Shown: positions 8,925 to 48,529, counted from the stretch's first letter. The stretch: 64,000 nt of DNA from Thermodesulfobacteriota bacterium (GCA_025062045.1 JANXAF010000001.1:141256-205255), one strand, 5' to 3'. Made by a program: numbers and translations. The notes: generated by a model from the letters alone, not told the origin.

Positions 8925-9598
8925 CTTCTCTCTCCAAAGATCGCGGTCCCTATTCTTACCATGGTTGCCCCTTCTTCTATTGCCACTTCAAAATCATTGG
9001 ACATGCCCATAGAAAGCTCCTTCATTTCAAGGCCAAATCTTTCATTTGTCCTTTGCAGAATCTCCTTGAGTCTTCTAAAGTACGGCCTTGCCATCTCTGG
9101 ATCTTCAAAATAGGGTGGCATCGTCATAAGCCCAATCGGTTCTATGTTTTCCATCTCTTTGGCCCTCTTTACGAGTTCAAAAAGCTCATCCTCAGTTCTC
9201 GCTCCAAATTTTGTCTCCTCCCCAGATAGGTTTACCTGAAATAGAACTTTAAGCGGTTTTCCAAAAGAATTTAGCAACTCGAGAACCTTTACTCTGTCTA
9301 CAGAATGAACGTACGAAAAGATATCCGGAATGAATTTCACCTTGTTTGTCTGAATATGTCCAATCATATGCCAGGTGACATTCCAATTTTTGAGCATTTC
9401 AGCCTTTTTTTTCGCCTCCTGAACGTAATTTTCGCCAATATCGGTAAGCCCCTCTTCAATGGCAAGAAGAATTCTATTCACATCTATACCTTTTGTTACA
9501 CCAATCAGTTTTACAGTTTTAGGGTCCCTTTTAGACTTTACACAAGCTTTTTCTATTTTATGCCGGACGATTTTGAGTGATTCTCGTACGTCTGTCAC
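8921..9598 (-). CDS. yggS: YggS-family PLP homeostasis protein
   Basis: Single-domain alanine-racemase-N-like fold, LIGVTKG Lys motif, 225 aa. Confidence 0.9.
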
Positions 9599-30602: not shown

Positions 30603-31841
30603 TTAAGTTCTAAACCTAGTCAGTATTCCGAAAGAGGGAAGGACCTTGTCTACTTGAAGTAGGTAATTTTCTATCACACCGGTGAGCCATCTCACTCCCC
30701 AAGAGACCGACTCCTCATTGAGACTCTTTATCGATTGAACGTATTCAAGGCCAGATTCGCAAAAACTTAGTATCCTCTCCTTGAACTTTTCTTTAAGTTC
30801 AGAAGAATTCTTTTGTGTATCTTCATCCAAAAAGATCTCATCGATTCTTCTCATTCCTTCTTTTAGCTCCACCTCTTCCGTTTTTCTAAAAGATAGGTTA
30901 AAGACAAGTTCATTCAACCTTTTTAGCCTTTCTTTCACTGAAATGTCGACGGTTTCGATAAGCCCTTCGTATATCCATTCACCGAATTCCTCTTTTTTTA
31001 GAAATTCGAATCTCACATGCCTATACCATTCTTTCAGGGCTTTAAGATTTGAAAGATAAATTACATTATTCGCCACAATTCTCTTTAAGTCAGGATAAAG
31101 GCTGCGTCGGAAATCTAAAATCTGATCCTTCCCTTTTTTGGCCATGATCAACTTATTCTCGTCAAGGTAATCTTTCCTCAATATGGACCCCGCGGCAACG
31201 ACGTTTCCGTAGCCTAGCCTGATCGGTCCTACAGCACCACCCTGCCCACCAAGAAATATGGGTGGCTCCCGGAGCATAACTCCCCTCGGTACATCTCCAA
31301 AAAGGGATGGTGTGGCTTTATCGTAATGGGGCGTAAAATTAAAATGGACATATGAACTTCCAACCTCCGAATGCTCCTTTCTACTCCTTCCGCCTGCAAT
31401 CAAACAGTCACAGAAATTGATAAGACTCCCAAGGGTAACAAAAGGAAAAAGAATGGTCTGTTTTAGACCGCACGAGTGGGCACATGAAGCTTCCTCCTCA
31501 AATATGCATCCCTCCCTTACGTGAGATCCATAACCGGCCACAGATTTTTGCAGAAAAACAGAGTTTTCAAAAAAGCCACTCTTTAATTCAACATGTGGTC
31601 CGACTCTTACGTCAAGGATGGTCACCGGTCCTTCTGTTCCTATTCGTGATCCTTTGGATATAACAGTTTTCTTTCCATGTATCCTGCAGTTGGGATAGAT
31701 AGTAACATCATCTCCAGATATCCTGCCTAGGTCTACCTCCTCTCCCACATACACACTTTGTGGATTTAAAACTTTAACACCCTTCTCCATTAGTATCTTT
31801 ACCCTTTTTAATGAGCTATCGAGTTCTAAGTTCCAACTCAT
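30603..31841 (-). CDS. left-handed beta-helix (GlmU C-terminal-like) protein with helical C-terminal domain
   Basis: Hexapeptide-like periodicity in residues 30-240. No nucleotidyltransferase domain. About 170-aa K/E-rich helical tail. Confidence 0.5.
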   Translation of the reverse strand: MSWNLELDSSLKRVKILMEKGVKVLNPQSVYVGEEVDLGRISGDDVTIYPNCRIHGKKTVISKGSRIGTEGPVTILDVRVGPHVELKSGFFENSVFLQKSVAGYGSHVREGCIFEEEASCAHSCGLKQTILFPFVTLGSLINFCDCLIAGGRSRKEHSEVGSSYVHFNFTPHYDKATPSLFGDVPRGVMLREPPIFLGGQGGAVGPIRLGYGNVVAAGSILRKDYLDENKLIMAKKGKDQILDFRRSLYPDLKRIVANNVIYLSNLKALKEWYRHVRFEFLKKEEFGEWIYEGLIETVDISVKERLKRLNELVFNLSFRKTEEVELKEGMRRIDEIFLDEDTQKNSSELKEKFKERILSFCESGLEYVQSIKSLNEESVSWGVRWLTGVIENYLLQVDKVLPSFGILTRFRT

Positions 31842-32576: not shown

Positions 32577-32605
32577 TTGAAAATGAAAAGTGACAAAGTT
32601 AAAAT
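32577..32605 (+). promoter_or_regulatory. sigma-70-type promoter upstream of mnmA
   Basis: TTGAAA (32577..32582), 17 nt spacer, TAAAAT (32600..32605). Confidence 0.45.
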
Positions 32606-32624
32606 AAATTCAGGATTGTAAAAG

Positions 32625-33707
32625 ATGAAGATTGCTGTCGGACTAAGTGGGGGTTTTGATTCTTCCATAGCAGCTTATCTTTTGGCAAAGAAAGGATACG
32701 AGCTTATCGGTGTAACCATGAGGATATGGGATGGGAAGATAAGTTGCACTACAAAGAAAAACGCGTGTTACGGGCCGGATGAAGAAAAAGACATAGAATT
32801 TGCACAGAAAATAAGCGAAAAACTCTCCATCCCACACTATGTAATCGATTTAAGAGACGAGTACAGAGAGTTCGTCCTTAATTACTTTTTCCTAGAGTAC
32901 AGAAAAGGAAGAACACCAAATCCCTGTGTTGTGTGTAACTCAAAGATAAAATTCGGGTTTTTGATAGAAAAGGTCCGTTCTTTGGGCCTCGATTTCGATT
33001 GCTTTGCTACGGGACACTACGCACGGATTGAGTTCGATCCGGAAAGGAAAAGATACCATTTAAAGAGGGGTGTCGACGAGCAAAAAGACCAATCCTACTT
33101 TCTCTACAGACTTACTCAAGACCAGTTAAAAACGATTCTATTTCCCCTTGGGGATTTTAGGAAAAATGAGCTAAAAATGAAGGCTTTAGATTTTGGACTG
33201 GAAGAACTTGCAAAAAGAAGGGAAAGCCAGGATTTTTTTGCCGACGATTATAGACTTCTCTTTGAGGACTGTGGCGAACCGGGAAACATAGTCGATGTTT
33301 ACGGTAACGTAATAGGCAGACACAAAGGAATATGCCACTACACTGTAGGTCAAAGGAGGTACCTTAATCTCGCTGGTCTAAAAGAGCCCTATTATGTGCT
33401 AAAAATCGATCCCGAAAGGAACGAGATCGTAGCGGGGCCTAAAAGGTATCTTTTTAGCTCTTCTCTTTTAGCAAAAGATCTTAACTGGCTATTACCTCCA
33501 GAAGAAGTAAAAGGGAAAAAAGTTTTCGCCAAAGTTCGGTCAACAGCAAGGCTTGCCGAATGTACTTTCGATTTTGTAGAAGACATGATTGTTGTTAGAT
33601 TTACCCAACCCCAAGAGGGTATAACACCGGGTCAATCTGTTGTCCTTTACGATGGGGAGGTTGTAATCGGTGGGGGTATTATAGAATCGTATCTAAGCTA
33701 TGAATGA
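32625..33707 (+). CDS. mnmA: tRNA 2-thiouridine(34) synthase
   Basis: PP-loop GLSGGFDSS and catalytic PNPCVVCN. Confidence 0.95.
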   Translation: MKIAVGLSGGFDSSIAAYLLAKKGYELIGVTMRIWDGKISCTTKKNACYGPDEEKDIEFAQKISEKLSIPHYVIDLRDEYREFVLNYFFLEYRKGRTPNPCVVCNSKIKFGFLIEKVRSLGLDFDCFATGHYARIEFDPERKRYHLKRGVDEQKDQSYFLYRLTQDQLKTILFPLGDFRKNELKMKALDFGLEELAKRRESQDFFADDYRLLFEDCGEPGNIVDVYGNVIGRHKGICHYTVGQRRYLNLAGLKEPYYVLKIDPERNEIVAGPKRYLFSSSLLAKDLNWLLPPEEVKGKKVFAKVRSTARLAECTFDFVEDMIVVRFTQPQEGITPGQSVVLYDGEVVIGGGIIESYLSYE

Positions 33708-35293
33708 TGGACATCACAAAAACTGATATAATATCAAAAGCTTTGGTCCGCCTAAAGGGCCTTACAAGTTCTGTTGGAACAAAACTCTTCCTTATCCTCG
33801 TTGCTCTTCTTGCGTTTTCTTTCATAGTAGTCCTCTACCATAATGTTCGAACCTACACGAACCATCTACACGAAAACGTTCTCAAAAATGCCATTCAGAT
33901 AAGCAATATAATAAAGAGCGCCTGTTATCACAGCATGCTGAAAAACGACAGAGAAGGATTGCAGAATATAATCATGAGCGTTGGAAAAGAAGAGGGTATC
34001 GATGCAATAAGGATTTACAACCGGGAAGGAATAATATCTTTTTCGAAGGATAAGGGAGAGATCCACCATGTGGCTGACAAAAGGGCAGAACAGTGCTACG
34101 TCTGCCACAGGGAGGAACCGGCAAAGGGTTTGATTCCAACAAAGGATCTCACAAGGATCCTTGTATCTCCCGAGGGATACAGGCAGCTTGGACTTGTGAA
34201 TCCCATCGAAAATAGTCCGGAATGTTACAATGCGGCTTGCCATGCCCACTCAAAGGATCAGCAGAAACTCGGTTTACTTGATGTCAAACTGTCACTAAAA
34301 AAGATAGATGAAGAAATAGTTCAGACCAAAAGGAGAATGGTCATATACTCTATCCTCCTTATACTTTTTACTGCCCTTCTTAAAGGGGCTTTCATCATTC
34401 TTCTTGTCCACAAGCCCATAAAAAAACTCATAAAAGGCGTAAGAGAGGTGGCAAAACTGAATCTGGATTACAAGGTTGATGTGAAATCGAACGATGAGCT
34501 TGGTGAGCTTGCCGCCTCTTTCAACGAGATGACAAAGGAGTTGAAGAATGCCCAAAACCATCTCATCTTTTCTGAGAGGATGGCCTCTTTAGGTAAAATA
34601 TCGGCCTCTGTTGCGCACGAGATAAATAATCCACTTTCAGGAATACTATCCTACGCAAAACTCACTGCAAGGTTTCTCGAAGAGAACGGCAATGATCCTG
34701 AAAAGATAAAAATGGCGATAGAGAATCTCAAATTTATAAGCGAGGAGAGTAAAAGATGCGGGGAGATAGTGAAGAATCTGCTCCTTTTCTGTAAGAAAAC
34801 CTTTGGTACCATAAGAGGAGAACATCTAAGTACTATAATAGAGAACAGCATAAAGCTCGTGGAGCACAGCGCAAAACTCCAAAAGGTTAAATTTGTAAAG
34901 GAGATAGATACGGAAAACGATATAGTGGTTGTCGATACTGGAGCTATAGAACAGGTTTTTGTCGATCTATTCATAAACGCCATAGAGGCTATGCCAAATG
35001 GTGGAGTGATTAAGGTAAGTACAAAAAACGGAAAGGACGAAATATTGATCACTGTGACAGATACCGGATGTGGTATCCCGGAAAATGTTTTACCCCGTAT
35101 ATTTGAACCTTTTTTCACCACTAAAGACCCAAAAAAGAGCACGGGACTTGGCCTTTGTGTAGTGTATAGTATCATTGAAGATCACGGCGGCAAAATAGAG
35201 GTATCGTCAAAAGTAAACGAAGGAACGACATTCACTATAGTCTTGCCCAGACTTTCGAAGAGATTGCCCAATGAGAAAGGGGGGTTAAGATAG
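33704..35293 (+). CDS. sensor histidine kinase with periplasmic domain carrying two c-type heme-binding motifs, HAMP, HisKA, HATPase
   Basis: TM helices near aa 27-45 and 212-235 flank about 165 aa containing CYVCH (CxxCH, nt 34094..34108) and CYNAACH (Cx4CH, nt 34223..34243). H-box SVAHEINNPL, plus N, G1 and G2 boxes. Confidence 0.9.
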   Translation: MMDITKTDIISKALVRLKGLTSSVGTKLFLILVALLAFSFIVVLYHNVRTYTNHLHENVLKNAIQISNIIKSACYHSMLKNDREGLQNIIMSVGKEEGIDAIRIYNREGIISFSKDKGEIHHVADKRAEQCYVCHREEPAKGLIPTKDLTRILVSPEGYRQLGLVNPIENSPECYNAACHAHSKDQQKLGLLDVKLSLKKIDEEIVQTKRRMVIYSILLILFTALLKGAFIILLVHKPIKKLIKGVREVAKLNLDYKVDVKSNDELGELAASFNEMTKELKNAQNHLIFSERMASLGKISASVAHEINNPLSGILSYAKLTARFLEENGNDPEKIKMAIENLKFISEESKRCGEIVKNLLLFCKKTFGTIRGEHLSTIIENSIKLVEHSAKLQKVKFVKEIDTENDIVVVDTGAIEQVFVDLFINAIEAMPNGGVIKVSTKNGKDEILITVTDTGCGIPENVLPRIFEPFFTTKDPKKSTGLGLCVVYSIIEDHGGKIEVSSKVNEGTTFTIVLPRLSKRLPNEKGGLR

Positions 35294-36637
35294 ATGAAGC
35301 CAAAAGATGTAAGCATCCTTATTGTTGATGACGAACCTTCCATCAGGAACTCTCTTGCGGGCTGGTTCAAAATGGATGGATACAAGACAGAAGTCGCTGA
35401 GGACGCGTATGAAGCTTTAAAAAAACTTCAAGAGAACAATTTCGATATTGCCCTCCTCGACATAAAGATGCCGGAGATGGACGGGATTGAGCTTCAAAGA
35501 AGGATAAAGGAGATAGACAAAAACATAATCACGATAATAATTACTGCATACGCGACAGTAGAGACAGCAATTCAGGCCATGAAAGATGGTGCATTCGACT
35601 ATATCACAAAGCCCATCGATCCTGATGAACTCTCGAGACTCATAAAAAAGGCCATAGAACAGAGGAGACTCATTGCCGAAAATATCATGCTCAGAGGAAA
35701 GATCGAGGAATTACAAAGCCTAGACGAAATAATAGGAGAAAGCCCAGCGATTAAAAAAGTGATGGAGCTTATAAATACAGTTGCGGAGACGGATTCAACG
35801 GTAATGATAAGAGGAGAAAGTGGCACTGGCAAAGAACTCGTAGCAAGAGCAATACATGCTAAAAGCAAAAGGAGATACTTCCCGATTGTCACGATAAACT
35901 GCGGGGCTTACCCGGAGGGACTCTTGGAGAGTGAACTTTTTGGCCATGAAAAAGGTGCTTTTACCGGTGCTCTTTATCAGAGGAAAGGAAAACTCGAGAT
36001 GGCAAATAAAGGTACACTTTTTCTGGATGAAGTCGGAAACATAAGCTTAAAGATGCAGATGGACCTTTTGCGCGTCCTCGAGACGAAGAAGTTCACAAGG
36101 CTTGGCGGCGACAAGGTTATAGAAGCAGATTTTAGGGTTATTTCGGCGACAAACCGTGATCTCGAACAGGCAGTTAGAGAGGGTAGCTTCAGGGAGGACC
36201 TCTATTACAGACTTAACGTTTTTACAATATTCCTTCCTCCTCTGAGGGAGAGAAAGAGCGATATTCCTCTCCTTACATACCATTTCATAAAGAAGTTTTC
36301 GCTCTCAATGAACAAAGACGTAAAAGAGATATCTAAGGAGGCCATGAATCTCCTTATGGACTACGATTGGCCCGGAAATGTAAGGGAGCTAAGAAATGTG
36401 ATCGAGAGGGCAATGGTCAACGTAAAAGGCAGTAGAATTGAAGTCGATGATCTTTACTTTAGCATATCTTCTCCCTATCCCAAGCCTGAAGGAGAGACTC
36501 TCGAAGACGTGGAAAAAGCCCACATAAAGAAGATTCTCAACAAAACGGGATGGAACATCACAAAGGCCGCCGAGATCTTAAACATAGATCGGGTGACCCT
36601 TTATAACAAGATCGAGAAGTACAAACTCAGAAAATAA
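35294..36637 (+). CDS. sigma-54-dependent response regulator (NtrC family: REC-AAA+-Fis HTH)
   Basis: REC (LLDIKMPEMDG), Walker A GESGTGKE, GAFTGA sigma-54 contact loop and a C-terminal Fis-type HTH. Confidence 0.95.
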   Translation: MKPKDVSILIVDDEPSIRNSLAGWFKMDGYKTEVAEDAYEALKKLQENNFDIALLDIKMPEMDGIELQRRIKEIDKNIITIIITAYATVETAIQAMKDGAFDYITKPIDPDELSRLIKKAIEQRRLIAENIMLRGKIEELQSLDEIIGESPAIKKVMELINTVAETDSTVMIRGESGTGKELVARAIHAKSKRRYFPIVTINCGAYPEGLLESELFGHEKGAFTGALYQRKGKLEMANKGTLFLDEVGNISLKMQMDLLRVLETKKFTRLGGDKVIEADFRVISATNRDLEQAVREGSFREDLYYRLNVFTIFLPPLRERKSDIPLLTYHFIKKFSLSMNKDVKEISKEAMNLLMDYDWPGNVRELRNVIERAMVNVKGSRIEVDDLYFSISSPYPKPEGETLEDVEKAHIKKILNKTGWNITKAAEILNIDRVTLYNKIEKYKLRK

Positions 36638-36646
36638 CTACTTTAA

Positions 36647-37174
36647 ATGCCATCCATATACATAGTGCCGGCGTGGCTTGAGGAGAACCATGATCTCGAA
36701 TTTTTGCGACTCCGCATCTCAGAAGTCTTCAGAAAAAAAACGGTCATATACGAGTCAAAAAAGATAGACTTCCACTCCATCTACAACCCCTCAAGGAAAC
36801 AGTACAACTCGTCCCAGTTTCTAATCCAGCTTCTCAATAACCACCCTAAGGACGCATTAAGAATACTGGGAGTCACAGATGTGGATCTATTCATACCAAT
36901 CCTCACGTTTGTCTTCGGAGAAGCCCAGCTTAACGGGATAGCGGGGGTAGTCTCTGTCCACAGACTGAATAACAAGTTCTACGGGTTACCTGAAAATGAG
37001 GAGCTTTTAAGAAAGAGACTTATAAAAGAGGCCATTCATGAGCTTGGACACACTTATGGCCTCGTCCACTGTCTCACTCCTGGGTGTGTGATGAATTCTT
37101 CCACCTATGTGGAAGACATAGATGAAAAATCTGAGTTTTTCTGTTCTTACTGCTCTTCCGTGATCAGGGGTTAA
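36647..37174 (+). CDS. amzA: archaemetzincin-type zinc metalloprotease
   Basis: HELGHTYGLVHCLTPGCVM...CSYC matches the archaemetzincin signature HExxHxxGx3Cx4CxM...CxxC (x16 here versus x17 in the published pattern). Confidence 0.85.
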   Translation: MPSIYIVPAWLEENHDLEFLRLRISEVFRKKTVIYESKKIDFHSIYNPSRKQYNSSQFLIQLLNNHPKDALRILGVTDVDLFIPILTFVFGEAQLNGIAGVVSVHRLNNKFYGLPENEELLRKRLIKEAIHELGHTYGLVHCLTPGCVMNSSTYVEDIDEKSEFFCSYCSSVIRG

Positions 37175-37863
37175 AGGAAGGTTTCTATCAGTTTCAAGTA
37201 ATCTTTCTTTGAGAGTTCCCTAAGTAGCTCCACAAACCTCTTTGAGCCACCGTCCTGCATCGTTGGTCCGACTCTTTCCTTCTGGCTTAATTGAAGTAGA
37301 AAGTTATAAAGCCTCCTTTCATCCCTCTTAAGCCAAAGTAGAGCTTCTTTTCCGGAGAGGAGCTTCTTTATGTCCTTTTCGAAGTTGTCGGGTCTCATCT
37401 TCACTAGAAAACCTTCGTTTAGAGGATCGGAAAGTAGAAGTTCCGGCTTTTTCTTCAAAGAACCATTGACAGATATTACGACACCTGAAACAGGCGAGGG
37501 AAGTGGCAGTATACCCCTTCCCTCAACTATGTGGCAAAACCTTTCACCTTGGACAAACCTATCGCCAGGATTGGGAAAAACAATCGATCTTACGCTCGAT
37601 AAAAAGGACGAAAGGAAGCTATCTATCCCTACTGTGACCTTAGATGGGTTTTCCACTCGGACCCAGAGGTGGTTTGGATGGTAAAAGTTGAAGAATTCTA
37701 TCTTAAAAAAGGGAGCCTCTTCTTTTTCCAGATCTTCGGCCCCTCCACGCATAGCAATATCGAATGGACAGGACGTACAATCGTATTCCCTGTCGCATAG
37801 CTTATAAAGTACGAGGCCCGCTGTCATCCAGACACATCTTTCGTCCACGGCTCTAATCCCCAT
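37171..37863 (-). CDS. GcvH-fold protein with N-terminal 4-Cys segment, no lipoyl-lysine
   Basis: C10-x12-C23-x5-C29-x2-C32, then a GcvH-like core (VGIDSF...SPVSGVVISVN...DPLNEGFLVKM). By hand alignment, Arg occupies the lipoyl-Lys position. ATG abuts the upstream TAG. Confidence 0.65.
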   Translation of the reverse strand: MGIRAVDERCVWMTAGLVLYKLCDREYDCTSCPFDIAMRGGAEDLEKEEAPFFKIEFFNFYHPNHLWVRVENPSKVTVGIDSFLSSFLSSVRSIVFPNPGDRFVQGERFCHIVEGRGILPLPSPVSGVVISVNGSLKKKPELLLSDPLNEGFLVKMRPDNFEKDIKKLLSGKEALLWLKRDERRLYNFLLQLSQKERVGPTMQDGGSKRFVELLRELSKKDYLKLIETFL

Positions 37864-38562
37864 CTACACGTCCTTTGTCATGAAATATTCCTTTACCATC
37901 TCATCCCAGGATTCCGGATTCAAGCTCTTTGCCATTCCAGAGATTGGCAAACCACCATCCTGCAAGAGGTAACCGAGGTTGTAGTTCATTCTGGAAAATA
38001 AACTCTCTTTTAAAGCATCTACCCATCTTATTGCGAGCCGTCCGTTAAGGAGATTTTTTAAATTGGACTTCAAGTTCGGAGAGTAAACCTTAAGTAGCCA
38101 ACCATCGCCGTATGGGTCTTCCGAAAGCTTTTTCGGATTCTTTATCACCTTTTCGTTTATCTCTATTATCTCTCCGTCCAAAGGAGAAAGCATCTTTATC
38201 TCCTTTCCGTCAACAAATAGACTCCAGCCAACTTCCCCTTGGATTATCTCTTCTCCCCTTTTAGGTACCTTTATCGCCTCCACGTTTCCTACAAGTTTTT
38301 GGGCAAAGTCGTCTATTCCAACCCTTGCGATTCTTTCGCCCTCAGGAAAGACCCAAGTGTGTCCCTGGTGGTAGTAAAGGTAATCTGGGATCCTAAAGAG
38401 CCTGCTCATAATCGTCCTTGGCGATTGACTTGGACCTGTGGAGGCTCGGCGGGGTCTTAAGGTCATATAAGAGAAGACCACAAAGGCCGCAAGAAAGAGT
38501 ATCACTAAGATGTACTCGATCCCTTTTGTGGCGAATATGTCGATATAGGTGAATCCTTCCAT
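37864..38562 (-). CDS. N-terminally membrane-anchored GcvH-fold protein
   Basis: TM helix YILVILFLAAFVVFSYMTL followed by RPRR, which predicts a cytoplasmic domain. GcvH-like core VGIDDFAQ...SPLDGEIIEIN...DPYGDGWLLKV. Confidence 0.65.
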   Translation of the reverse strand: MEGFTYIDIFATKGIEYILVILFLAAFVVFSYMTLRPRRASTGPSQSPRTIMSRLFRIPDYLYYHQGHTWVFPEGERIARVGIDDFAQKLVGNVEAIKVPKRGEEIIQGEVGWSLFVDGKEIKMLSPLDGEIIEINEKVIKNPKKLSEDPYGDGWLLKVYSPNLKSNLKNLLNGRLAIRWVDALKESLFSRMNYNLGYLLQDGGLPISGMAKSLNPESWDEMVKEYFMTKDV

Positions 38563-38574
38563 TTTTAACCCTCC

Positions 38575-39927
38575 TTAATAGTCTCTGTATCTTTGGCCAC
38601 CATTTGCCATTGTAAAACCTAGTTCAGCTTGATACTCCTCCTCTTCGAGCTCTTTTTCCTTCGCCCATTCAGGAACTTCCCCATAGACCGGCATCCTATT
38701 GACGACCCATCTGAAGATCCAAAGCTGAGTAAAAACAATCGTTAAAGTTATAACTATCTCTTGCCACGTAGGTATGTACTTCTCGCTAAGCGGGAGGTAC
38801 CACTTGTAAGCGATCATGGAGTAGTTGATCCTGTTTATTATGACGCCGAGCATCGTTACTAAAGCCGCAACTCTAATGAGATTTATCCTTCTGTCCCTTT
38901 GCCCGTAGTAAAACATAAGGCAAGGAATGAGCACGAACCCTAAAACTTCCACAAGATACCAGATCCCCATGGGGCTTGAGATGTATACCCAGCTCTTTCC
39001 GTGTATGAAGATCAAAACCTTAAGGAAGAAGTACACAAAAAGTGTTATGGCACATCCTCTCGCAAGCCCAATAACTATATCATCGTAGTTTTTGAGATAC
39101 TCCTCAGACATCCTATGTCTGAAAACTTTCTTACTTATGGTCCCCTCAACAATCACACAGGAGAGTCCGGCAAATATACTGGAGACGAAAAAGAGAACCG
39201 GAATGAATTCCGTGTACCAGAGGGGGTGTAACTTATTCTTCGCCATCATAAATAGAGCTCCGAGCCCGGACTGGTGAAGGGTTGAGAGGGCTATTCCAAA
39301 GACGCACGCACCGAGCGTCATAGAGCTTAGAATCTTTCTTAGTCTTTTTAGCTCTAGCCACTCGGCAATGGCAGGAGAAAACTCTATAAACTGTGCGATC
39401 ATGTAAAGGAGAAAGTGCCATGCAACAAGAAAAAGTACTGAATTTACACCGAACTCATTTCCGATAATAGGGTTTAGAATGTTCCATTTCCTTCCTAAGT
39501 CCAAAAATATGGCGGATGCATAAAACACATAGGCCAAAAAACCGTTTAATATGGTCGCTCTCAAAATCGGATGGTATTTTTCGGCGTTAAGGATATAAAC
39601 GACGAATGCTAGGACATAGGCACCACCGGCGAATGGCACTCCAACCATGACGTTAAAACCTATAAATATGCCCCACGGAAAGTCTTGAGAAACGTTACTT
39701 CCGTGGGAGAGTCCGTAAAACATGTGGGTTATGATGAGATAGGTCCCCAAAAGGATAATAGGAAGAGTAATGACGTTAAATGCGGTAAGGACCTTTCCTT
39801 TTGGCTTTAATTCTTTAATGAGAAGTACAAGAAAACCGATGAAGTAAAAGGTTAAGAGAACTAGTTTCGATAACGCTAAAGTGAGACCATTTCTCGCAAT
39901 AGTTATGGATTCAAACTCTTTTCTCAT
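38575..39927 (-). CDS. NrfD/PsrC/HybB-family polytopic membrane (quinone-interacting) subunit
   Basis: 450 aa with about 10 TM helices and an acidic cytoplasmic C-terminal tail. ATGA overlap with the upstream Fe-S gene. Confidence 0.8.
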   Translation of the reverse strand: MRKEFESITIARNGLTLALSKLVLLTFYFIGFLVLLIKELKPKGKVLTAFNVITLPIILLGTYLIITHMFYGLSHGSNVSQDFPWGIFIGFNVMVGVPFAGGAYVLAFVVYILNAEKYHPILRATILNGFLAYVFYASAIFLDLGRKWNILNPIIGNEFGVNSVLFLVAWHFLLYMIAQFIEFSPAIAEWLELKRLRKILSSMTLGACVFGIALSTLHQSGLGALFMMAKNKLHPLWYTEFIPVLFFVSSIFAGLSCVIVEGTISKKVFRHRMSEEYLKNYDDIVIGLARGCAITLFVYFFLKVLIFIHGKSWVYISSPMGIWYLVEVLGFVLIPCLMFYYGQRDRRINLIRVAALVTMLGVIINRINYSMIAYKWYLPLSEKYIPTWQEIVITLTIVFTQLWIFRWVVNRMPVYGEVPEWAKEKELEEEEYQAELGFTMANGGQRYRDY

Positions 39928-40790
39928 CTTTCAATCTCCTTTTTACGTTCCTTAGTTAGGTAATGGATACCTGTGAGAAAAGCAGGCCAAAGGATTAGAA
40001 TCACAGGCACAGAGTAGAGAAAGCCTGTCGTGTATTCCGGATAAGGCGTGTAACCCAGATCCATCTGGAAGTTGAGCTTTTCAAATGGATAAGATGAGAT
40101 GTAGAGAAAGGCTGTGCCTCCGACCTCGTTTTCCCCGTAAATGTAAGGCACGTACAAACCGGGGGTTTGATAGATCCTCTTTTTTGCCTCATTTAAAATA
40201 TCCCTTCTTGTACCGAACGTTAAAGCCTCCTTTGGGCAGACTTCGACACAGGCTGGGACTTTCCCAGAACTTATCCTTCCGTAGCACATATCACACTTCA
40301 TGATCCTACCGAAGGCCTCGTCGTATTCGAATTTCGGTATGTCGAAAGGGCATGAAACCATGCAGTACCTGCAACCCATGCAGTTCTCATCCCAGGTTAC
40401 AGGTCCCTCCTTTCGCTTTTTCATTGCCTTTACAAGACAGGCTGCAACACATCCTGGTTGGTTGCAGTGCATACATTGAATTTTTACGTAGATCTCGCCT
40501 TTTTCTGTTAGGAACCTATTGACAACTGTGAGGGTTTTTTCATCCGGCTTTCTTATCTTTGTGAAGACACTTTTGTCCTCTATGTTTGGAATTGGAAGGG
40601 AGTGGGATTCCGCACAGCTCGCCTCACACGTCCTACAACCTATGCACCTTGTCGTATCGACAAGGACACCGAAAAACTCCTTAGTTTTCGCTTTTATCTC
40701 AGAAGAAAAGACGGTTTTGCTACAAATAGCCGAAGATGCGAAAAGACCAAGTCCCGAGAGGGCCACCTTAAGAAACTCTCGTCTTTTCAT
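39924..40790 (-). CDS. Tat-exported 4x[4Fe-4S] ferredoxin subunit with C-terminal TM anchor (HybA/NrfC/DsrO-like)
   Basis: Twin-arginine signal MKRREFLK. Four Cys clusters (CIGCRTCEASC, CMHCNQPGCVAAC, CMGCRYCMVSCP, CDMC...CVEVCP). C-terminal helix VPVILILWPAFLTGI. Confidence 0.9.
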   Translation of the reverse strand: MKRREFLKVALSGLGLFASSAICSKTVFSSEIKAKTKEFFGVLVDTTRCIGCRTCEASCAESHSLPIPNIEDKSVFTKIRKPDEKTLTVVNRFLTEKGEIYVKIQCMHCNQPGCVAACLVKAMKKRKEGPVTWDENCMGCRYCMVSCPFDIPKFEYDEAFGRIMKCDMCYGRISSGKVPACVEVCPKEALTFGTRRDILNEAKKRIYQTPGLYVPYIYGENEVGGTAFLYISSYPFEKLNFQMDLGYTPYPEYTTGFLYSVPVILILWPAFLTGIHYLTKERKKEIER

Positions 40791-41022
40791 CCTCTGCCTC
40801 CTCTTTTTCTTGAACTTTCTCTCCCCCGTCTGCTAGTGTGAAACCGAGCTCAGGAGTGTAAAACAGCGACTTTTCTCTAAGTTTTACTTCCATGGCCTTT
40901 TTTGTCGGATATAGACCCATAAAGAATAGATGCCATGCGAGATACCCGAAAATGAGCCCAAGGATCAATCCACCCCCCAAAAGAAGGACTGGGTAAATTT
41001 CTATGAATCTTCCGGCTTCCAT
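40768..41022 (-). CDS. 84-aa single-pass membrane protein with acidic tail
   Basis: GGAGGTGA SD 5 nt upstream of the ATG. One TM helix followed by basic residues. Carries the ELGFTLADGG motif shared with the NrfD-like C-terminus. 23-nt overlap with the next gene. Confidence 0.6.
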   Translation of the reverse strand: MEAGRFIEIYPVLLLGGGLILGLIFGYLAWHLFFMGLYPTKKAMEVKLREKSLFYTPELGFTLADGGEKVQEKEEAEDEKTRVS

Positions 41023-41052: not shown

Positions 41053-41067
41053 GCAATATGCGTGCCA
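41053..41067 (-). promoter_or_regulatory. sigma-54 (-24/-12) promoter
   Basis: Minus strand reads TGGCAC-GCATA-TTGC (TGGCAC = 41067..41062, TTGC = 41056..41053), an exact match to TGGCAC-N5-TTGC. It lies 31 nt upstream of the ATG at 41022. Confidence 0.7.
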
Positions 41068-41159: not shown

Positions 41160-41202
41160 ATCGTTGAATTTTTCAACGATGGGCTATTGAATTTTTCAAC
41201 GA
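41160..41202. promoter_or_regulatory. tandem palindromic enhancer-like (UAS) sites
   Basis: A perfect 21-bp palindrome ATCGTTGAA-TTT-TTCAACGAT (41160..41180). An exact 16-nt repeat of its core, TTGAATTTTTCAACGA, occurs at 41187..41202. Centres are 23 bp apart and about 104 and 127 bp upstream of the -24 element. Confidence 0.55.
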
Positions 41203-41414
41203 CTCGTGGATAGGTCCAATTCGTATCCTTCCGACTCAATAGCTCGTTTTAATGCCTCTAAATCTATTTCACCCTCGTACGTTACTTTTAGTGTTTCGGT
41301 CTCTACATTTGCCTCACACGCGATCACATTTTTTATCCGTTTTACGGCAGATTCGATCCTTCTTTCGCAATGACTACATCCCATGCCTTTTACTTGCAGG
41401 GTAATCGTTTTCAT
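41196..41414 (-). CDS. copZ: copper chaperone CopZ (HMA domain)
   Basis: 72 aa with the GMGCSHC metal-binding loop. Confidence 0.9.
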   Translation of the reverse strand: MKTITLQVKGMGCSHCERRIESAVKRIKNVIACEANVETETLKVTYEGEIDLEALKRAIESEGYELDLSTSR

Positions 41415-43867
41415 CTTCTTACTCCCAGATTGAGTGCTTTTATTCTCAAAGAATTGAGTACCACAAAAAGCGAGCTCAATGTCATCGCAAAGGAAGCATA
41501 AAGAGGTTTAAGTAGGATCTGAAACGTTGGATAGAATAGACCTGATGCGCACGGTATAAGAAGGACATTATAGAAAAAAGCCCAAAAAAGGTTTTCTTTT
41601 ACTATTTTATTCGTCTTTCTGGAGAGCTTTAAAAATCTCACTATGCCCCTTAAGTCCTCGTTTATGAGGATTACGTCAGACGTTTGAGCAGCGATATCCG
41701 TTCCCTTACCCATCGCGAATCCCAAATCAGAAAGGCTAAGGGCAGGAGCATCATTTATACCATCTCCCACCATCGCAACCTTATATCCTCTCTTTTTGAG
41801 ATCTTCAACTTTTAAAGACTTCTCATGGGGAAGCATATCTCCAAAGACTTCATCTATATTTGCTCTTTTAGCAAAGATTTTAGCCACATTCATGCTATCT
41901 CCAGTGAGAAGACCGATTCTTATCCCCATCTTTTTAAGTTCCGAAATAGTCTCAATCGATTCCTCTCTTAGCGTGTCCCCTATGGCTATAAAACCGGCAA
42001 GAATCCCATCAATTGCTACACAAAGACAAGTACTTCCGTCACCTGTTAGCCTTTCATAAACCTCTCTGTGAGGTTCTATTTCCACGCCCATTCTTTTTGC
42101 AAAAGATAGACTGCCAACTAGTACCTTTTTTGAAGTAACTTCTCCTATCAACCCTTCACCAGGAACGTAACTGAATGACTCCGGTTCAGAAAGAAAAAGA
42201 TTTCTTGCCATGGCGTATCTCACAATGGCACGTCCTAAAGGATGTTCAGAGTTCTTCTCAAGGGACCCTGCAATGGCAACGATCTCTTCCTCTTCAAACC
42301 CATTTACAGGAAAGACCGTCTTTACTTCCACTTTACCGTAAGTTAGAGTTCCCGTCTTGTCGATGAGTACGTAATTTATCTTTTTTGCCGAATCAAAAGC
42401 TTCCCCGTTTCTTACTAGGATTCCATACTCTGCCGCCTTTGAACTGGCCACAAAGATCGCAATCGGAGTTGCGAGACCCAAAGCGCAAGGACAAGCAACG
42501 ATGAGTACCGAAACGAAAATCATAAGCGAAAAAGAAGCCGGATATCCCGAAGTAAGCCAGACTAGAAAAGAAAAAAAGGCAATAAAAAAAACGGTGGGCA
42601 CAAAAATACTTGCTATCTTATCAGCCAGGGCTTGGACAGGTGCTTTTCGGGCTTGAGCCCTTTTTACCATCTCCACAATTTGGGAAAGAAGCGTATCCTT
42701 GCCGATTCTTTGCACCTTTAACTTGAATGCTCCTAAAAGGTTGAGACTCGAAGCGTAAACCCAATCCCCAGTCTTCTTCTCTTTAGGTATGGCTTCTCCT
42801 GTAATCGAAGACTCATCTAGTGTACCATACCCGTCTATTATCAGCCCATCTACAGGGATCCTCTCTCCTGGCCTCACAAGTAGTACGTCTTCTTCTTTTA
42901 TCTCCTTTAAAGGGACCTCTTTTATCTTTCCGTCTCTTATAACGGTTGCTTTTTTGGGTAGTAGTGAGGCCAGTCTTCTTATTGCCTCGTACGCTCTTTT
43001 TTTTGCCTTAAGTTCAAGAAGTCTTCCAAAGAGTACAAGCGTTATTATTACGGCACATGTCTCATAGTAAACATCGAGTGGTGGTGAACCTTTTTTTATA
43101 TATGGAAAAAAAGTATTGAAGGAACTGTATAGGTAAGCTGAACCACTACCCACCGAGATGAGCGCGTTCATATCGAATGAGAGATGCTTTGCGGAGCGCA
43201 AAAATGCGAAGAGAAATCCGCTTCCGCCGTAAAAAAAGATGGGCGTTGTGAGAAAAAAAAGGGCAAGGTTTATGCTCTGTCTGTCAAAGCTCATAAAAAA
43301 GAAGTGAAGAAACATATCCGAAAGGACAAAGAAAGTAAGAATAGCTGAAAGAACGAGTCTTTTTTTTAGTCGTTTCTTTTCTTTTTCTTTTTTTACTTCC
43401 TCGAATGATTCTACATCCTCATCCTCGATATGAAGAATTGAGAGTCCAAGATCGGTCAAAATCTTTTTCACATCTTCGAGAGAGACAATTGTCGGCACAA
43501 ACTCTACGGTTATTTCCTCTGCTAAGGGATTGACATGGACATACGTAATTCCGATCTTACTTTTAAGCCTTTTATCTATGATATCAAAAGCCGGGATCAT
43601 CGATAGTCCCTGAACAGGTATCACCGCTTTGTTTGTTTCAACCTCATAACCTAAATCTTTCACGGTTTTTATTATCTTTTCGAGCAACTCTCGAGAAAAT
43701 TCTTTGGCCTCTACGGTTGCCCTTTCCAAAACGAGATTCAACGAAACTCTTTCTAACTCCTTTATCTTCGAAAGGCTATCCTCTATTCTTTTCACACATG
43801 CAGAACAGGTCATACCGGATATTGGGATTATGAGTATTTGTGTCCCTTCTTGAGCCACCCGGTTCAT
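41411..43867 (-). CDS. copA: copper-translocating P1B-type ATPase
   Basis: HMA GMTCSAC, a second HMA-like repeat lacking the Cys pair (GLSMIPAF), TM CPC, DKTGTLT and GDGINDAP. ATG at 43867 chosen, because the TTG at 43912 would read through the hcp terminator. Confidence 0.9.
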   Translation of the reverse strand: MNRVAQEGTQILIIPISGMTCSACVKRIEDSLSKIKELERVSLNLVLERATVEAKEFSRELLEKIIKTVKDLGYEVETNKAVIPVQGLSMIPAFDIIDKRLKSKIGITYVHVNPLAEEITVEFVPTIVSLEDVKKILTDLGLSILHIEDEDVESFEEVKKEKEKKRLKKRLVLSAILTFFVLSDMFLHFFFMSFDRQSINLALFFLTTPIFFYGGSGFLFAFLRSAKHLSFDMNALISVGSGSAYLYSSFNTFFPYIKKGSPPLDVYYETCAVIITLVLFGRLLELKAKKRAYEAIRRLASLLPKKATVIRDGKIKEVPLKEIKEEDVLLVRPGERIPVDGLIIDGYGTLDESSITGEAIPKEKKTGDWVYASSLNLLGAFKLKVQRIGKDTLLSQIVEMVKRAQARKAPVQALADKIASIFVPTVFFIAFFSFLVWLTSGYPASFSLMIFVSVLIVACPCALGLATPIAIFVASSKAAEYGILVRNGEAFDSAKKINYVLIDKTGTLTYGKVEVKTVFPVNGFEEEEIVAIAGSLEKNSEHPLGRAIVRYAMARNLFLSEPESFSYVPGEGLIGEVTSKKVLVGSLSFAKRMGVEIEPHREVYERLTGDGSTCLCVAIDGILAGFIAIGDTLREESIETISELKKMGIRIGLLTGDSMNVAKIFAKRANIDEVFGDMLPHEKSLKVEDLKKRGYKVAMVGDGINDAPALSLSDLGFAMGKGTDIAAQTSDVILINEDLRGIVRFLKLSRKTNKIVKENLFWAFFYNVLLIPCASGLFYPTFQILLKPLYASFAMTLSSLFVVLNSLRIKALNLGVRR

Positions 43868-43897
43868 AAAAAAAGGGACGGAGGGTAGCCCTCCGTC
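43868..43897 (-). terminator. rho-independent terminator after hcp
   Basis: Minus strand reads GACGGAGGG-cta-CCCTCCGTC followed by CCTTTTTTT. The 9-bp GC-rich stem occupies 43877..43897 and the T7 run 43868..43874. The T-run leads directly into the copA ATG. Confidence 0.7.
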
Positions 43898-43902
43898 TAA
43901 AA

Positions 43903-45537
43903 TCAGACACAAGAAAGCATAGCTTTCACATCTTCTTCCGCAGAAGAGATCGGTTTTAGATCGAACCTTTCAACTATCATCTTTCCGACACGGGGAGAGA
44001 TAAAAGCAGGCAGTGTCGGGCCAAGCCTAATACCTTTAAAACCGAGATACAAAAGGGCAAGAAGGACACTTACCGCTTTCTGTTCATACCAGGCGATATC
44101 AAAAGAAATTGGTAGGCTATCTAGGTCCGAAAACCCAAGTAACTCCTTAAGTTTAAGCGCCACATATGCCAAGGAGTAGGAATCGTTACACTGGCCCGCA
44201 TCGATCACTCTTGGTATACCCTTTATATCACCGAGGGGTAAGGTGTTGTATCTGAATTTGGCGCACCCCGCAGTAAGTATCACTGTGTCTTTAGGCAAAA
44301 TCTTTGCGACTTCCGTAAAGTACTCCCTCGTCTTATGCCTTCCATCACAACCCGCCATCACTACGAATCTCTTTATATCTCCGGATTTTAAAAGATCCAA
44401 AATCCTATCCGCAAAAGATAGGATCTGATTGTGACCGAATCCTCCATAGATTTTTTTATCCTTTAACGGCTTTGGAGGAGAACATCTCTTAGCCACCTCA
44501 ATTATCTTTGTGAAATCTTTAGGCTTTCCATCTTCTCTGTCCGGGATGTGAATAGCCCCCGGATAGCTTACGGGACCTAGTGTGAATAACCTAGAAAGAT
44601 AGGTATTTTCCTTTCTTAGTGGGATTAAGCAGTTCGTTGTGGCAAGAATAGGTCCATTGAAGGATTCAAACTCGTCGTTTTGAGCTGGCCACGAACCTCC
44701 ATAGTTACCTATAAGATTTTTGAATTTTTTGAAGACAGGATAGAAGTGGGCTGGGAGCATCTCTCCGTGTGTGTAAACGTCTATGTTTTCACCCTGTGTC
44801 TGCTCAAGAAGCTCGTACAGATCTTTTAGATCGTGCCCTGTAATTAGGATCCCAGGGTTTGAGCCAACTTTTGTTTTTACTTCCGTAAACTCCGGGTGCC
44901 CGAAAGTCTTCGTATTTGCTTCATCAAGCAAAGCGATAGTTTTGACTGCAATCTCCCCGGTTTTTACAACAAGGGAGAAAAGTTCCTCTTCTTTTAGTTC
45001 CTTCGTTAGAGATGCCAAACCCTCAACTATGAAATTGTAAATTTCGTCACTCTCATAACCAAGATTCGCAGCATGTTCTGCATAAGCCGAAATACCCTTT
45101 ATTCCGAATGTGATTAGGGACTTTAAGGATCTTACGTCTTCATCGGGAATCGAGTTTATCCGAACTTCAAAAGAGGATGCTTTTTCTTTGATATCCTCCT
45201 TTTTATCAGCCGACCATGTCGCACAGTCAGGAAGATCAGTAAGTGGGGACTTTAGTTTTCCTTTTAAAGAATCGCGCAATCTCAGCCCCTCTTTTATCCT
45301 CTCGATTATAATTTCATCATCCCATCCCACATTGGTAAGTGTTGTAAAAAGGGCCCGACATAGAAACCTACCTATCTCTCGATCCAACTTTTCGAGTCTT
45401 GAAGCGTAAATGCTTATCCCCTTGCAAACGTAAATTAGAAGATCCTGTAAGTTCGCTGTAGTTTCGGTCTTGCCGCAAACTCCTCTCGTCGTGCAAGCTA
45501 CGTTCTTTGCCGTCTCCTGACACTGAAAACAAAACAT
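43903..45537 (-). CDS. hcp: hybrid-cluster protein / hydroxylamine reductase
   Basis: N-terminal MFCFQCQET...C...GVCGK cluster motif, 544 aa. Confidence 0.95.
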   Translation of the reverse strand: MFCFQCQETAKNVACTTRGVCGKTETTANLQDLLIYVCKGISIYASRLEKLDREIGRFLCRALFTTLTNVGWDDEIIIERIKEGLRLRDSLKGKLKSPLTDLPDCATWSADKKEDIKEKASSFEVRINSIPDEDVRSLKSLITFGIKGISAYAEHAANLGYESDEIYNFIVEGLASLTKELKEEELFSLVVKTGEIAVKTIALLDEANTKTFGHPEFTEVKTKVGSNPGILITGHDLKDLYELLEQTQGENIDVYTHGEMLPAHFYPVFKKFKNLIGNYGGSWPAQNDEFESFNGPILATTNCLIPLRKENTYLSRLFTLGPVSYPGAIHIPDREDGKPKDFTKIIEVAKRCSPPKPLKDKKIYGGFGHNQILSFADRILDLLKSGDIKRFVVMAGCDGRHKTREYFTEVAKILPKDTVILTAGCAKFRYNTLPLGDIKGIPRVIDAGQCNDSYSLAYVALKLKELLGFSDLDSLPISFDIAWYEQKAVSVLLALLYLGFKGIRLGPTLPAFISPRVGKMIVERFDLKPISSAEEDVKAMLSCV

Positions 45538-45598
45538 GCTTACCTCCTCATTTTTCGTTAAGCTTTCTTAATATTACCCCTTCTTTCATAAACTTTCT

Positions 45599-45612
45599 TT
45601 GCTCTAGATCAA
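45599..45612 (-). promoter_or_regulatory. FNR/CRP-type operator in the hcp promoter
   Basis: Minus strand reads TTGAT-CTAG-AGCAA, a 9/10 match to TTGAT-N4-ATCAA. TAATAT (-10) lies at 45576..45571. The site centre falls near -41.5 if the TSS is 7 nt past the -10. Confidence 0.5.
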
Positions 45613-45614
45613 AA

Positions 45615-46304
45615 TCACCCGGTAGATCCCTTCGTGACATCATCTATGGCATCGGGATCGATAATTACTATTTTTTTCCTCCTAGAGGCTATCCATCCCT
45701 TTGATTCCCAGTCTTTCAAGATTCTGCTCACGGAGTAAAGTGTTGTACAAGCGTATTGAGCAAGCTCTTCCCTCGATATCGGAAGATCGATAGAGATTCC
45801 CGCACTAACTCTTTTTCTCTCATATGCCGTGAGCCTTAGAAGAGCTCGACCTATTCTTTTTTTTAGGTCTTCCGAATAAAGCTCCAATAGCCGGTTTTGC
45901 ACCTCTTCAAATCGGTCTATTACGACCTTTAAGATATTCAGAGTCAATTGGGGGTATACCCTCAATGCTTCTAGTATCACACCTTTCGGCCATGAAAGTA
46001 CACTCGAATCGTGAACCGCTTCTGCACTCACCCCATAACATTTTTCACCAAAAAGCGAAGTGGCACCAAGTATTTCCCCAGGCCCAGCATACCTAATTAG
46101 GACCGATTTACCATCGTCATTTGTCTTAGTAAGCTTAAATTTTCCATTGAGCACAAGATAGAATCTCTGTGCAGTCTGCCCTTCGAGGAATAGTTTTCCT
46201 TTTTTTTTGACACTTCCATGGTCTGCACTTTTGATTATGCCTTCTTTTGCTTTCTCGCTCAGCCCTGATAATATTGCAAAATCGAATACATTCTCCTCAA
46301 TCAT
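45615..46304 (-). CDS. Crp/Fnr-family transcriptional regulator (HcpR-like by context)
   Basis: cNMP-binding-like beta-barrel plus C-terminal HTH (REELAQYACTTLYSVSRILKDWE). Its ATG overlaps the cbiH stop (ATGA). Confidence 0.85.
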   Translation of the reverse strand: MIEENVFDFAILSGLSEKAKEGIIKSADHGSVKKKGKLFLEGQTAQRFYLVLNGKFKLTKTNDDGKSVLIRYAGPGEILGATSLFGEKCYGVSAEAVHDSSVLSWPKGVILEALRVYPQLTLNILKVVIDRFEEVQNRLLELYSEDLKKRIGRALLRLTAYERKRVSAGISIDLPISREELAQYACTTLYSVSRILKDWESKGWIASRRKKIVIIDPDAIDDVTKGSTG

Positions 46305-47778: not shown

Positions 47779-48529
47779 TCTTTTTTCTCCTTCCATGTTC
47801 GAATTGAGGATCGTAGAGTTTCGACCTGCCATAGGTTGGTCTTAGGACATCTCCGACTATTATGAGAGCGTGTTTTGTGATTCCATGAAGTTTCACTTTT
47901 TCGGAGATGTCCTTTAAAGTTCCGGTCAATATTTTTTGATCTGGCCACGTTACCCTTTGAATAACTGCACATGGGGTGCCATCGCTCAATCCGGCTCTTT
48001 TAAGTTTAGATACGACCTTTTCTATTTCGTGGACGCTTAAAAAAAGAACGATTGTGGCCTTGCTTTTAGCTAAAACCTCTAAATCTTGGGACTCTAAAAC
48101 GGAAGTCCTTCCGCCTATCCTTGTAATTATGACTGTCTGGCTTACGTCGGGTAGGGTCAGTTCTCTCTTTAATGCACTGGAGGCGGCTTGAAATGAGCTT
48201 ACTCCCGGAATAAGCTCATAGTCTATCCCTTCTTTTTCACATGCGTTTATCTGTTCCTGCAGCGCACTGTAAATCGAGAGATCGCCGCTATGAAGCCTTA
48301 CGACCTTCTTCCCTTCCCTTATAGATCTTTTTATAACTTCGATTATCTCTTCCAAAGTCATCTTAGACGAGTCAAATATCTCTGCGCCCTCTTTTGCAAA
48401 CGAAAGAATATCAGGATTAACGAGAGATCCGGCATAGATTATGGTATCAGCCTCCTCTAAAACCTTCCTACCTTTTATCGTCAAAAGCTCTGGGTCTCCT
48501 GGTCCTGCACCAACGAAGTAAACTTTCAT
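47750..48529 (-). CDS. cbiF: cobalt-precorrin-4 (C11)-methyltransferase
   Basis: MKVYFVGAGPGDPELLT N-terminus, 259 aa. Confidence 0.9.
   Translation of the reverse strand: MKVYFVGAGPGDPELLTIKGRKVLEEADTIIYAGSLVNPDILSFAKEGAEIFDSSKMTLEEIIEVIKRSIREGKKVVRLHSGDLSIYSALQEQINACEKEGIDYELIPGVSSFQAASSALKRELTLPDVSQTVIITRIGGRTSVLESQDLEVLAKSKATIVLFLSVHEIEKVVSKLKRAGLSDGTPCAVIQRVTWPDQKILTGTLKDISEKVKLHGITKHALIIVGDVLRPTYGRSKLYDPQFEHGRRKKSEPRNHSYK

Follow-up and report, generated by a model that had tools for sequence, protein, structure and literature searches.

What does a histidine kinase with two heme c motifs in its extracytoplasmic loop respond to, and which genes does it govern? The question is raised by a 64,000-nucleotide (nt) stretch of DNA from a Thermodesulfobacteriota bacterium (GCA_025062045.1 JANXAF010000001.1:141256-205255; hereafter the window, with positions counted from its first letter), in which the gene for such a kinase is directly followed by that for a sigma-54-dependent response regulator. 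An earlier note on this DNA had proposed that the kinase is a periplasmic di-heme sensor and that the pair controls a sigma-54 promoter some distance downstream. The analysis presented here makes it probable that the two proteins form an NtrC-class pair, a kinase with a two-heme periplasmic Cache domain and a regulator that drives an operon from the sigma-54 promoter at 41053-41067 on the minus strand. Heme c Cache sensors have been recognised as a large family only recently and, to our knowledge, only single-heme members have been characterised.

A histidine kinase with two conserved C-x(2-4)-CH motifs

The kinase gene (33704-35293, plus strand) encodes 529 amino acids (aa), and its product is identical in sequence to NCBI entry MCS7280170.1 from an uncultured Thermodesulfobacteriota metagenome-assembled genome (MAG); the window proteins likewise have identical entries from that MAG. 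The open reading frame (ORF) and its Pfam matches give the order transmembrane helix 1 (TM1), Cache domain, TM2, HAMP, HisKA and HATPase_c. Hydropathy places TM1 at aa 27-46 (33782-33841) and TM2 at aa 212-236 (34337-34411), as the earlier note had supposed to within a residue or so, and the segment between them (aa 47-211, 33842-34336) is the sensor domain. The HAMP domain (aa 231-281, 34394-34546; PF00672, E=1.5e-12) is followed by HisKA (aa 297-362) and HATPase_c (aa 412-516), which together span 34592-35251, and the phospho-acceptor His305 (34616-34618) lies within the H-box SVAHEINNPL (aa 302-311); Pfam and the motif positions agree with the order of domains first described. By NCBIfam the transmitter is most similar to AtoS and ZraS, with scores under the curated cut-offs. 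The segment N-terminal to TM1 is rich in Lys and Arg and is therefore predicted to be cytoplasmic. Since this positive charge precedes TM1 and HAMP follows TM2, the intervening loop should be extracytoplasmic; the periplasmic location first claimed for it is borne out by the charge distribution, by the position of HAMP and by the predicted Cache/PDC fold described below.

Within this loop we find the CxxCH motif C131-Y-V-C134-H135 (34094-34108) and the Cx4CH motif C174-YNAA-C179-H180 (34223-34243), both at exactly the coordinates first reported. At Cys and His frequencies of 1.2% and 1.7%, about 0.001 C-x(2-4)-CH motifs would be expected by chance in a 165-aa loop. Among the other long ORFs of the 64 kb such a motif occurs once, in an ORF that may not be coding (8870-9226, CPFFYCH).

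A first homolog search yielded 17 relatives that keep both motifs, and the profile built from them was searched against a library clustered at 50% identity. This search matched 2481 cluster representatives at E<=0.001, 1320 at E<=1e-10 and 424 at E<=1e-30. Among the 150 best-matching representatives, which are mutually at most 50% identical, 139 carry a CxxCH followed by a Cx4CH; the others have a CxxCH and a Cx3CH (four), two CxxCH motifs (two) or are fragments with a single motif (five). Residue conservation was counted after 142 of the 150 had been aligned. Met78 (33935-33937), Gly109, Cys131, Cys134, His135 and Gly190 are invariant, so that the entire CxxCH signature is retained in 142/142 sequences, and the Cx4CH residues are nearly so (C174 in 140, C179 in 141 and H180 in 140 of the 142). 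His182 (34247-34249), a candidate distal ligand of a second heme, is kept in 130/142.

Fold of the loop and its relation to solved heme c sensors

An AlphaFold2 (AF2) model of residues 40-240, whose predicted local distance difference test score (pLDDT) averages 75, proceeds from a long helix through a second helix, two strands, the loop with CxxCH (between strands 2 and 3), two further strands, the stretch with Cx4CH, a fifth strand and a helix that runs into TM2. The best Foldseek matches to this model are the Cache domains of WalK, CitA, DctB and KinD (E-values of 4e-7 to 5e-4 for the first three), and the AF2 model, Foldseek and the family profile all identify residues 47-211 as a single-Cache (PDC) sensor domain.

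That the loop is related to known heme sensors is supported by profile searches. The first family profile matched the sensor domain of GSU0935 (3B42) with E=4.5e-4, and a broader profile of 38 family sequences matched both 3B42 (E=1e-6) and the sensor domain of GSU0582 (3B47; E=3e-4). In the profile alignment, Cx4CH sits on the CQSCH sequence (Cys140, Cys143, His144) of 3B42 and 3B47, and Met78 falls on residue 26 of the 3B42 chain, which is Met60. PF21563 (Mcp40H-20_sensor), the family of the two Geobacter domains, matches 32/38 family members at E<=1 (best E 1e-7) and is already present in the precomputed annotation of several close homologs.

The window kinase shares with GSU0935 and GSU0582 a PAS-like/Cache fold lying between two TM helices and followed by HAMP, a heme motif between the last two strands, and a Met in the N-terminal helix where Met60 stands. 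The Geobacter proteins are chemoreceptors with one heme at a CxxCH, whereas the window protein is a histidine kinase with a Cx4CH at that place and a second motif, CxxCH, in a longer loop. The segment holding this CxxCH (131-135) is about 20 residues longer than its counterpart in GSU0935, which has no heme motif there in the aligned parts. This longer segment with an added CxxCH therefore marks the domain as a divergent, two-motif branch of the heme c Cache sensors and not as a cytochrome c3-type domain. The earlier note had compared the Cx4CH with those of cytochrome c3. The spacing of the motif is indeed c3-like; the fold, by AF2 and Foldseek, is Cache, and we reject a cytochrome c3 fold.

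The Cys and His residues might instead work without heme, binding a metal such as zinc or acting in the periplasm as a reversible disulfide switch. The loops that bear the motifs are disordered in the model of the apo protein, and the window showed no maturation genes, both of which would suit such a role. Against it, a His comes directly after the second Cys in at least 140 of the 142 sequences at both motifs, which is the signature of heme c and argues against a zinc site or a disulfide switch. In addition, the alignment matches Cx4CH to the site where GSU0935 and GSU0582 are proven to carry heme, and the invariant Met78 to their axial Met60. We give the heme-free explanation very little credence, and treat both motifs as probable heme c sites in what follows.

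The kinase and regulator belong to a conserved cluster

The regulator gene (35294-36637, plus strand; 447 aa) abuts the kinase gene, the TAG stop codon at 35291-35293 being followed by the ATG at 35294. Its product was correctly described from the outset as a REC-AAA+-Fis activator, with matches to Response_reg, Sigma54_activat, AAA_lid_14 and HTH_8. Asp56 lies in the REC domain, the GAFTGA motif begins at aa 221 (35954-35971) and the Fis-type helix-turn-helix (HTH) is encoded by 36497-36622. This is the only GAFTGA protein encoded in the window. The third gene of the trio (36647-37174, plus strand) encodes an archaemetzincin (Pfam Peptidase_M54) with an intact zinc motif, HELGHTYGLVH.

Facing these three genes, on the minus strand, is the putative target operon. 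Its first gene (40768-41022), recognised as an ORF, encodes an 84-aa membrane protein containing the peptide ELGFTLADGG; it has a strong ribosome-binding site and counterparts in three related loci (L001, L002 and L066). The next two encode an HmcB/HybA-like periplasmic iron-sulfur (FeS) subunit with the twin-arginine signal RREFLK (39924-40790; 335 bits against HmcB, cut-off 420) and an HmcC/HybB-like membrane subunit of the NrfD family whose C-terminal tail reads ELGFTMANGG (38575-39927; 390 bits against HmcC, cut-off 550). The last two encode GcvH-like proteins, recognised by Pfam and alignment and both without the lipoyl-lysine: protein A (37864-38562) has an N-terminal TM helix, and protein B (37171-37863) has an N-terminal C-x13-C-x6-C-x2-C motif and the peptide VGPTMQDGG. 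The archaemetzincin and GcvH-like B genes converge with a 4-nt overlap (37171-37174), and there is therefore no room for terminators between them.

To follow this arrangement in other genomes we scanned one genome per species, which returned 239 relatives, of which 80 loci were kept. Conservation was counted over 82 non-redundant loci, with the loci that have enough flanking sequence as the denominator in each case. The regulator gene is downstream of the kinase gene in 68/70 loci, and an archaemetzincin gene is downstream of the regulator gene in 62/66, across phyla. Where there was room on both sides, FeS and NrfD genes occur within 10 kb in 36/41 loci and GcvH-like genes in 34/41. The module is either convergent and downstream of the trio or on the same strand and upstream of it. 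Carriers include Thermodesulfobacteriota, Syntrophales, Syntrophorhabdus, Acidobacteriota, Gemmatimonadota and Limnocylindrales among others, and all are MAGs. A further homolog search returned short fragments only, with no cultured organism and no Geobacter entry among the matches.

The closest comparison is with L001 (a close relative, 82% identity) and L002 (a Syntrophales MAG, 58%). The window and these two loci have in common the kinase, regulator and Peptidase_M54 genes (the last at 12915-13445 in L001 and 13168-13746 in L002) facing two GcvH-like, NrfD and FeS genes and the small ORF, in otherwise unrelated neighbourhoods. The target gene set had been called an orphan module, a description that does not hold: it belongs to a conserved cluster that includes an archaemetzincin. 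A literature search for archaemetzincins in combination with sigma-54, NrfD or GcvH found nothing relevant to this cluster.

Promoter and palindromes upstream of the module

The only exact match in the window to a sigma-54 (-24/-12) promoter is TGGCACGCATATTGC (41053-41067, minus strand). It is intergenic, located 31 nt 5' of the operon's first start codon and 95 nt 3' of two tandem palindromes found by pattern matching, TCGTTGAATTTTTCAACGA (41161-41179) and ATTGAATTTTTCAAC (41186-41200). These palindromes, of the form GTTGAA-N3-TTCAAC, are candidate binding sites for the regulator; 0.28 matches would be expected in the window by chance.

The same arrangement recurs in related loci. The more general motif GTTnAA-N3-TTnAAC is present in clusters of two to four copies 5' of the module in many of them, and a TGGC-N8-TG element lies within 200 nt of the palindromes in 16/17 clusters, as compared with 15% of random anchors. 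The element, such as TGGCATGCCGGTTGCA from a Blastocatellia MAG or TGGCCCGCACATTGCC from a Gemmatimonadota MAG, is mostly 95-165 nt from the last palindrome of the cluster. A scan with the strict sigma-54 consensus over at most 600 nt 5' of the FeS gene found almost no sites in related loci beyond that of L001 and near-start sites in L066 and L069. This strict scan missed promoters because the operon often starts further upstream and because the -12 element is often TTGA; they were recovered because the second search was anchored on the palindromes.

Could the proximity of the promoter be a coincidence, with the pair controlling genes elsewhere and some other activator driving the HmcBC-like/GcvH-like operon? 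The pair lies 4.4 kb from the promoter, is convergent with the operon and is apparently co-transcribed with mnmA. A sigma-54-like pattern with one mismatch is also not rare, 1.47 being expected in 64 kb. Against this stand the linkage of pair and module in 36/41 loci from several phyla while the flanking genes differ, the joint occurrence of palindromes and -24/-12 element in 16/17 cases, and the lack of a second GAFTGA protein in the window. We consider the coincidence very improbable. The comparative evidence points to the co-inherited regulator as the factor that probably drives the HmcB/HmcC/GcvH-like module, and the control of the 41053-41067 promoter by this pair, first put forward as a conjecture, gains support from the linkage across phyla and from the conserved palindrome/-24/-12 architecture, with binding by the regulator itself a prediction.

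Three minor observations concern these elements. The stop codon (41196-41198) of the neighbouring HMA gene falls inside the distal palindrome. A second sigma-54-like site at 47967-47981 has one mismatch, lies inside a tetrapyrrole methylase gene and was dismissed as a chance occurrence. Finally, in a related locus (L079, 5315-5564) three perfect GTTGAA-N3-TTCAAC palindromes have to either side a -24/-12 element that faces outward (TGGCATGCGGCTTGCA, minus strand; CGGCACATCGATTGCC, plus strand), an arrangement that suggests divergent sigma-54 promoters with one common set of activator sites.

Proposed mechanism

For GSU0935 and GSU0582 it has been described that the distal ligand Met60 binds the heme in its reduced form and gives way when the heme is oxidised or takes up nitric oxide (NO) or carbon monoxide (CO), and redox potential has been proposed as the signal for both (PMC8396549). 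By analogy, the first heme of the window kinase would be attached at Cx4CH, through Cys174 and Cys179, with His180 as the proximal ligand and Met78 as the predicted distal axial ligand. The second would be attached at CxxCH (Cys131 and Cys134, with His135) and would probably be bis-His ligated with His182 in the distal position. Oxidation or reduction of the hemes, or the binding of NO or CO, would displace Met78. This residue sits in the helix that extends TM1, from where a change of ligand could travel to TM2, HAMP and His305. Displacement would thus shift the bundle formed by this helix and the TM segments, and HAMP would relay the shift to autophosphorylation at His305. The CxxCH heme might serve to pass on electrons from carriers in the periplasm, or to adjust the potential. 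Phosphotransfer from His305 to Asp56 would then let the regulator assemble on the tandem palindromes at 41161-41200 and open the promoter at 41053-41067, with expression of the small membrane protein, the HmcB-like and HmcC-like subunits and the two GcvH-like proteins. The signal may be redox potential, on the precedent of the Geobacter sensors, or NO, which single-heme Cache receptors have been shown to sense.

Several points weigh against this account. Pfam with the whole kinase and phmmer against the PDB, both run with the single sequence, gave no match for loop residues 47-211, and the Geobacter sensors were reached only by family profiles; the window kinase itself scores 15.8 bits against PF21563, under the 27-bit threshold. 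The stretches holding CxxCH and Cx4CH are the low-confidence parts of the AF2 model, so that the ligand geometry proposed there is tentative. Poor model confidence is expected for loops whose folding depends on a cofactor. Neither cytochrome c maturation genes (searched by the WWD motif) nor rpoN were found within the 64-kb window. The attachment of heme at both motifs is deduced from sequence, and the palindromes are candidate sites that another regulator might bind in place of this one. The Syntrophales-type loci have an unusual -12 element for sigma-54 promoters, with TTGA or ATGG in place of TTGC. The altered -12 is seen in L016, L019, L023, L024, L027 and L031-L035 and in L002 (near 17980), with the TGGC of the -24 element and the palindrome spacing kept. 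Lastly, the signal-transducing single-heme Cache receptors that have been characterised act as NO sensors, binding NO tightly and forming no stable complexes with O2 (PMC12889525).

This last point bears on an alternative in which the architecture is the same and the signal is a diatomic gas, chiefly NO, bound at the Met-ligated heme, the module then serving nitrosative-stress or related metabolism. GSU0582 and GSU0935 take up NO and CO by displacement of Met60 (PMC8396549), and in the window the genes for a hybrid-cluster protein and for a CRP/FNR-family regulator lie 3-5 kb off. These two neighbours, however, are not kept in related loci, and the target that is conserved, an HmcBC/HybAB-like quinone module, includes no recognisable NO-handling enzyme. 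A second, probably bis-His heme would also be better suited to electron relay than to gas binding. We regard a dedicated gas sensor as a minor but real possibility, and the two-heme kinase and regulator driving the operon at 41053-41067 as the probable arrangement.

The operon products and the archaemetzincin

The operon products look like a quinone-linked transmembrane redox module. A role for the GcvH-like genes as lipoylated H-proteins was considered and rejected: the lipoyl-lysine column, placed with E. coli GcvH as the reference, is occupied in most homologs by Ser, Gly, Glu or Asp. Among the homologs of GcvH-like protein B, 34/38 have an N-terminal cysteine motif of the form C-x(4-8)-C-x2-C.

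Four of the operon proteins, namely the small ORF product, the NrfD-family subunit in its C-terminal tail and both GcvH-like proteins, share the peptide LGxT(M/L)x(D/N)GG. It was not found elsewhere in the long ORFs of the window. It does occur in Gemmatimonadota and Acidobacteriota counterparts and in 27/38 of the B-type GcvH-like homologs. We know of no physiological role for archaemetzincins. A bolder reading, which we put forward as speculation and consider doubtful, is that the two-heme kinase, sigma-54 regulator, archaemetzincin, small membrane protein, HmcB-like and HmcC-like subunits and two GcvH-like proteins make up an undescribed eight-gene system in which the shared peptide (LGxTMxDGG in the four proteins) would be recognised or processed by the archaemetzincin or by the GcvH-like domains. 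If true, this would give bacterial archaemetzincins a first physiological role and would define a new redox-regulated membrane electron-transfer complex.

Relation to known systems

Two-heme-motif sensors of this class have been noted earlier in G. sulfurreducens (GSU0591 and GSU0599) and in Anaeromyxobacter (Adeh_2011 and Adeh_3383). GSU0599 adjoins BccR (GSU0598), a sigma-54 regulator without which the quinone oxidoreductase CbcBA is not induced at falling redox potential; the paper on BccR does not tie GSU0599 to it. As described in the literature, GSU0599 resembles the window kinase in that it is a two-component protein, has two C-x(2-4)-CH motifs and stands beside a REC/sigma-54/HTH regulator, and BccR resembles the window regulator in that it activates a membrane quinone-oxidoreductase operon (cbcBA) from a sigma-54 promoter. 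The two systems differ in gene order, which by locus numbering is apparently regulator then kinase in Geobacter as opposed to kinase, regulator and protease in the window, and in their targets, the b/c-type cytochrome pair CbcBA in the one and the HmcB-like, HmcC-like and GcvH-like set in the other. Since two-heme-motif sensors such as GSU0599 have been noted in Geobacter, the type of sensor is already known, and the novelty lies more in the conserved eight-gene cluster than in the sensor-regulator pair.

Two further comparisons are more distant. The sCache_heme family (DUF3365/Tll0287-like, PF11845) has a single strictly conserved CXXCH, and two-heme forms are not mentioned in its description (Deshpande et al., 2026 preprint). 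PF11845 does not match the window protein and matches 8/38 of its relatives weakly (best E=0.073), and the window protein has two motifs instead of one. The AtoS/AtoC and ZraS/ZraR systems are the most similar in the transmitter (HisKA, HATPase_c) and in the regulator (REC, AAA+, HTH_8); the scores of the window proteins are far under the equivalog cut-offs, and there is no relationship between the sensor domains.

At least 424 representatives (at 50% identity, E<=1e-30) constitute a defined two-heme subfamily whose predicted ligands, Met78, His135, His180 and His182, are open to mutation. Likewise, the palindrome and -24/-12 architecture provides a predicted regulator-binding motif with which genomes can be scanned. 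A sensor that signals the need for the HmcBC-like/GcvH-like module and the archaemetzincin would offer a way into their function.

Neighbouring genes

The start of the kinase gene overlaps by 4 nt (ATGA) the stop codon of a gene for a MnmA-type tRNA 2-thiouridylase (32577-33707, plus strand), which has a sigma-70-like promoter 5' of it. The adjacency of mnmA and the kinase gene is also found in L001 and not in more distant loci. On the other side, 5' of the operon, the minus strand from 41196 to 46304 carries genes for a CRP/FNR-family regulator, a hybrid-cluster (prismane) protein, a copper-type P-type ATPase with an HMA domain and a 72-aa HMA protein; none of these neighbours is conserved in related loci. 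A 412-aa ORF at 30603-31841 (minus strand), which has no Pfam match at E<=1e-5, is kept beside a Ysc84-domain gene in L001.

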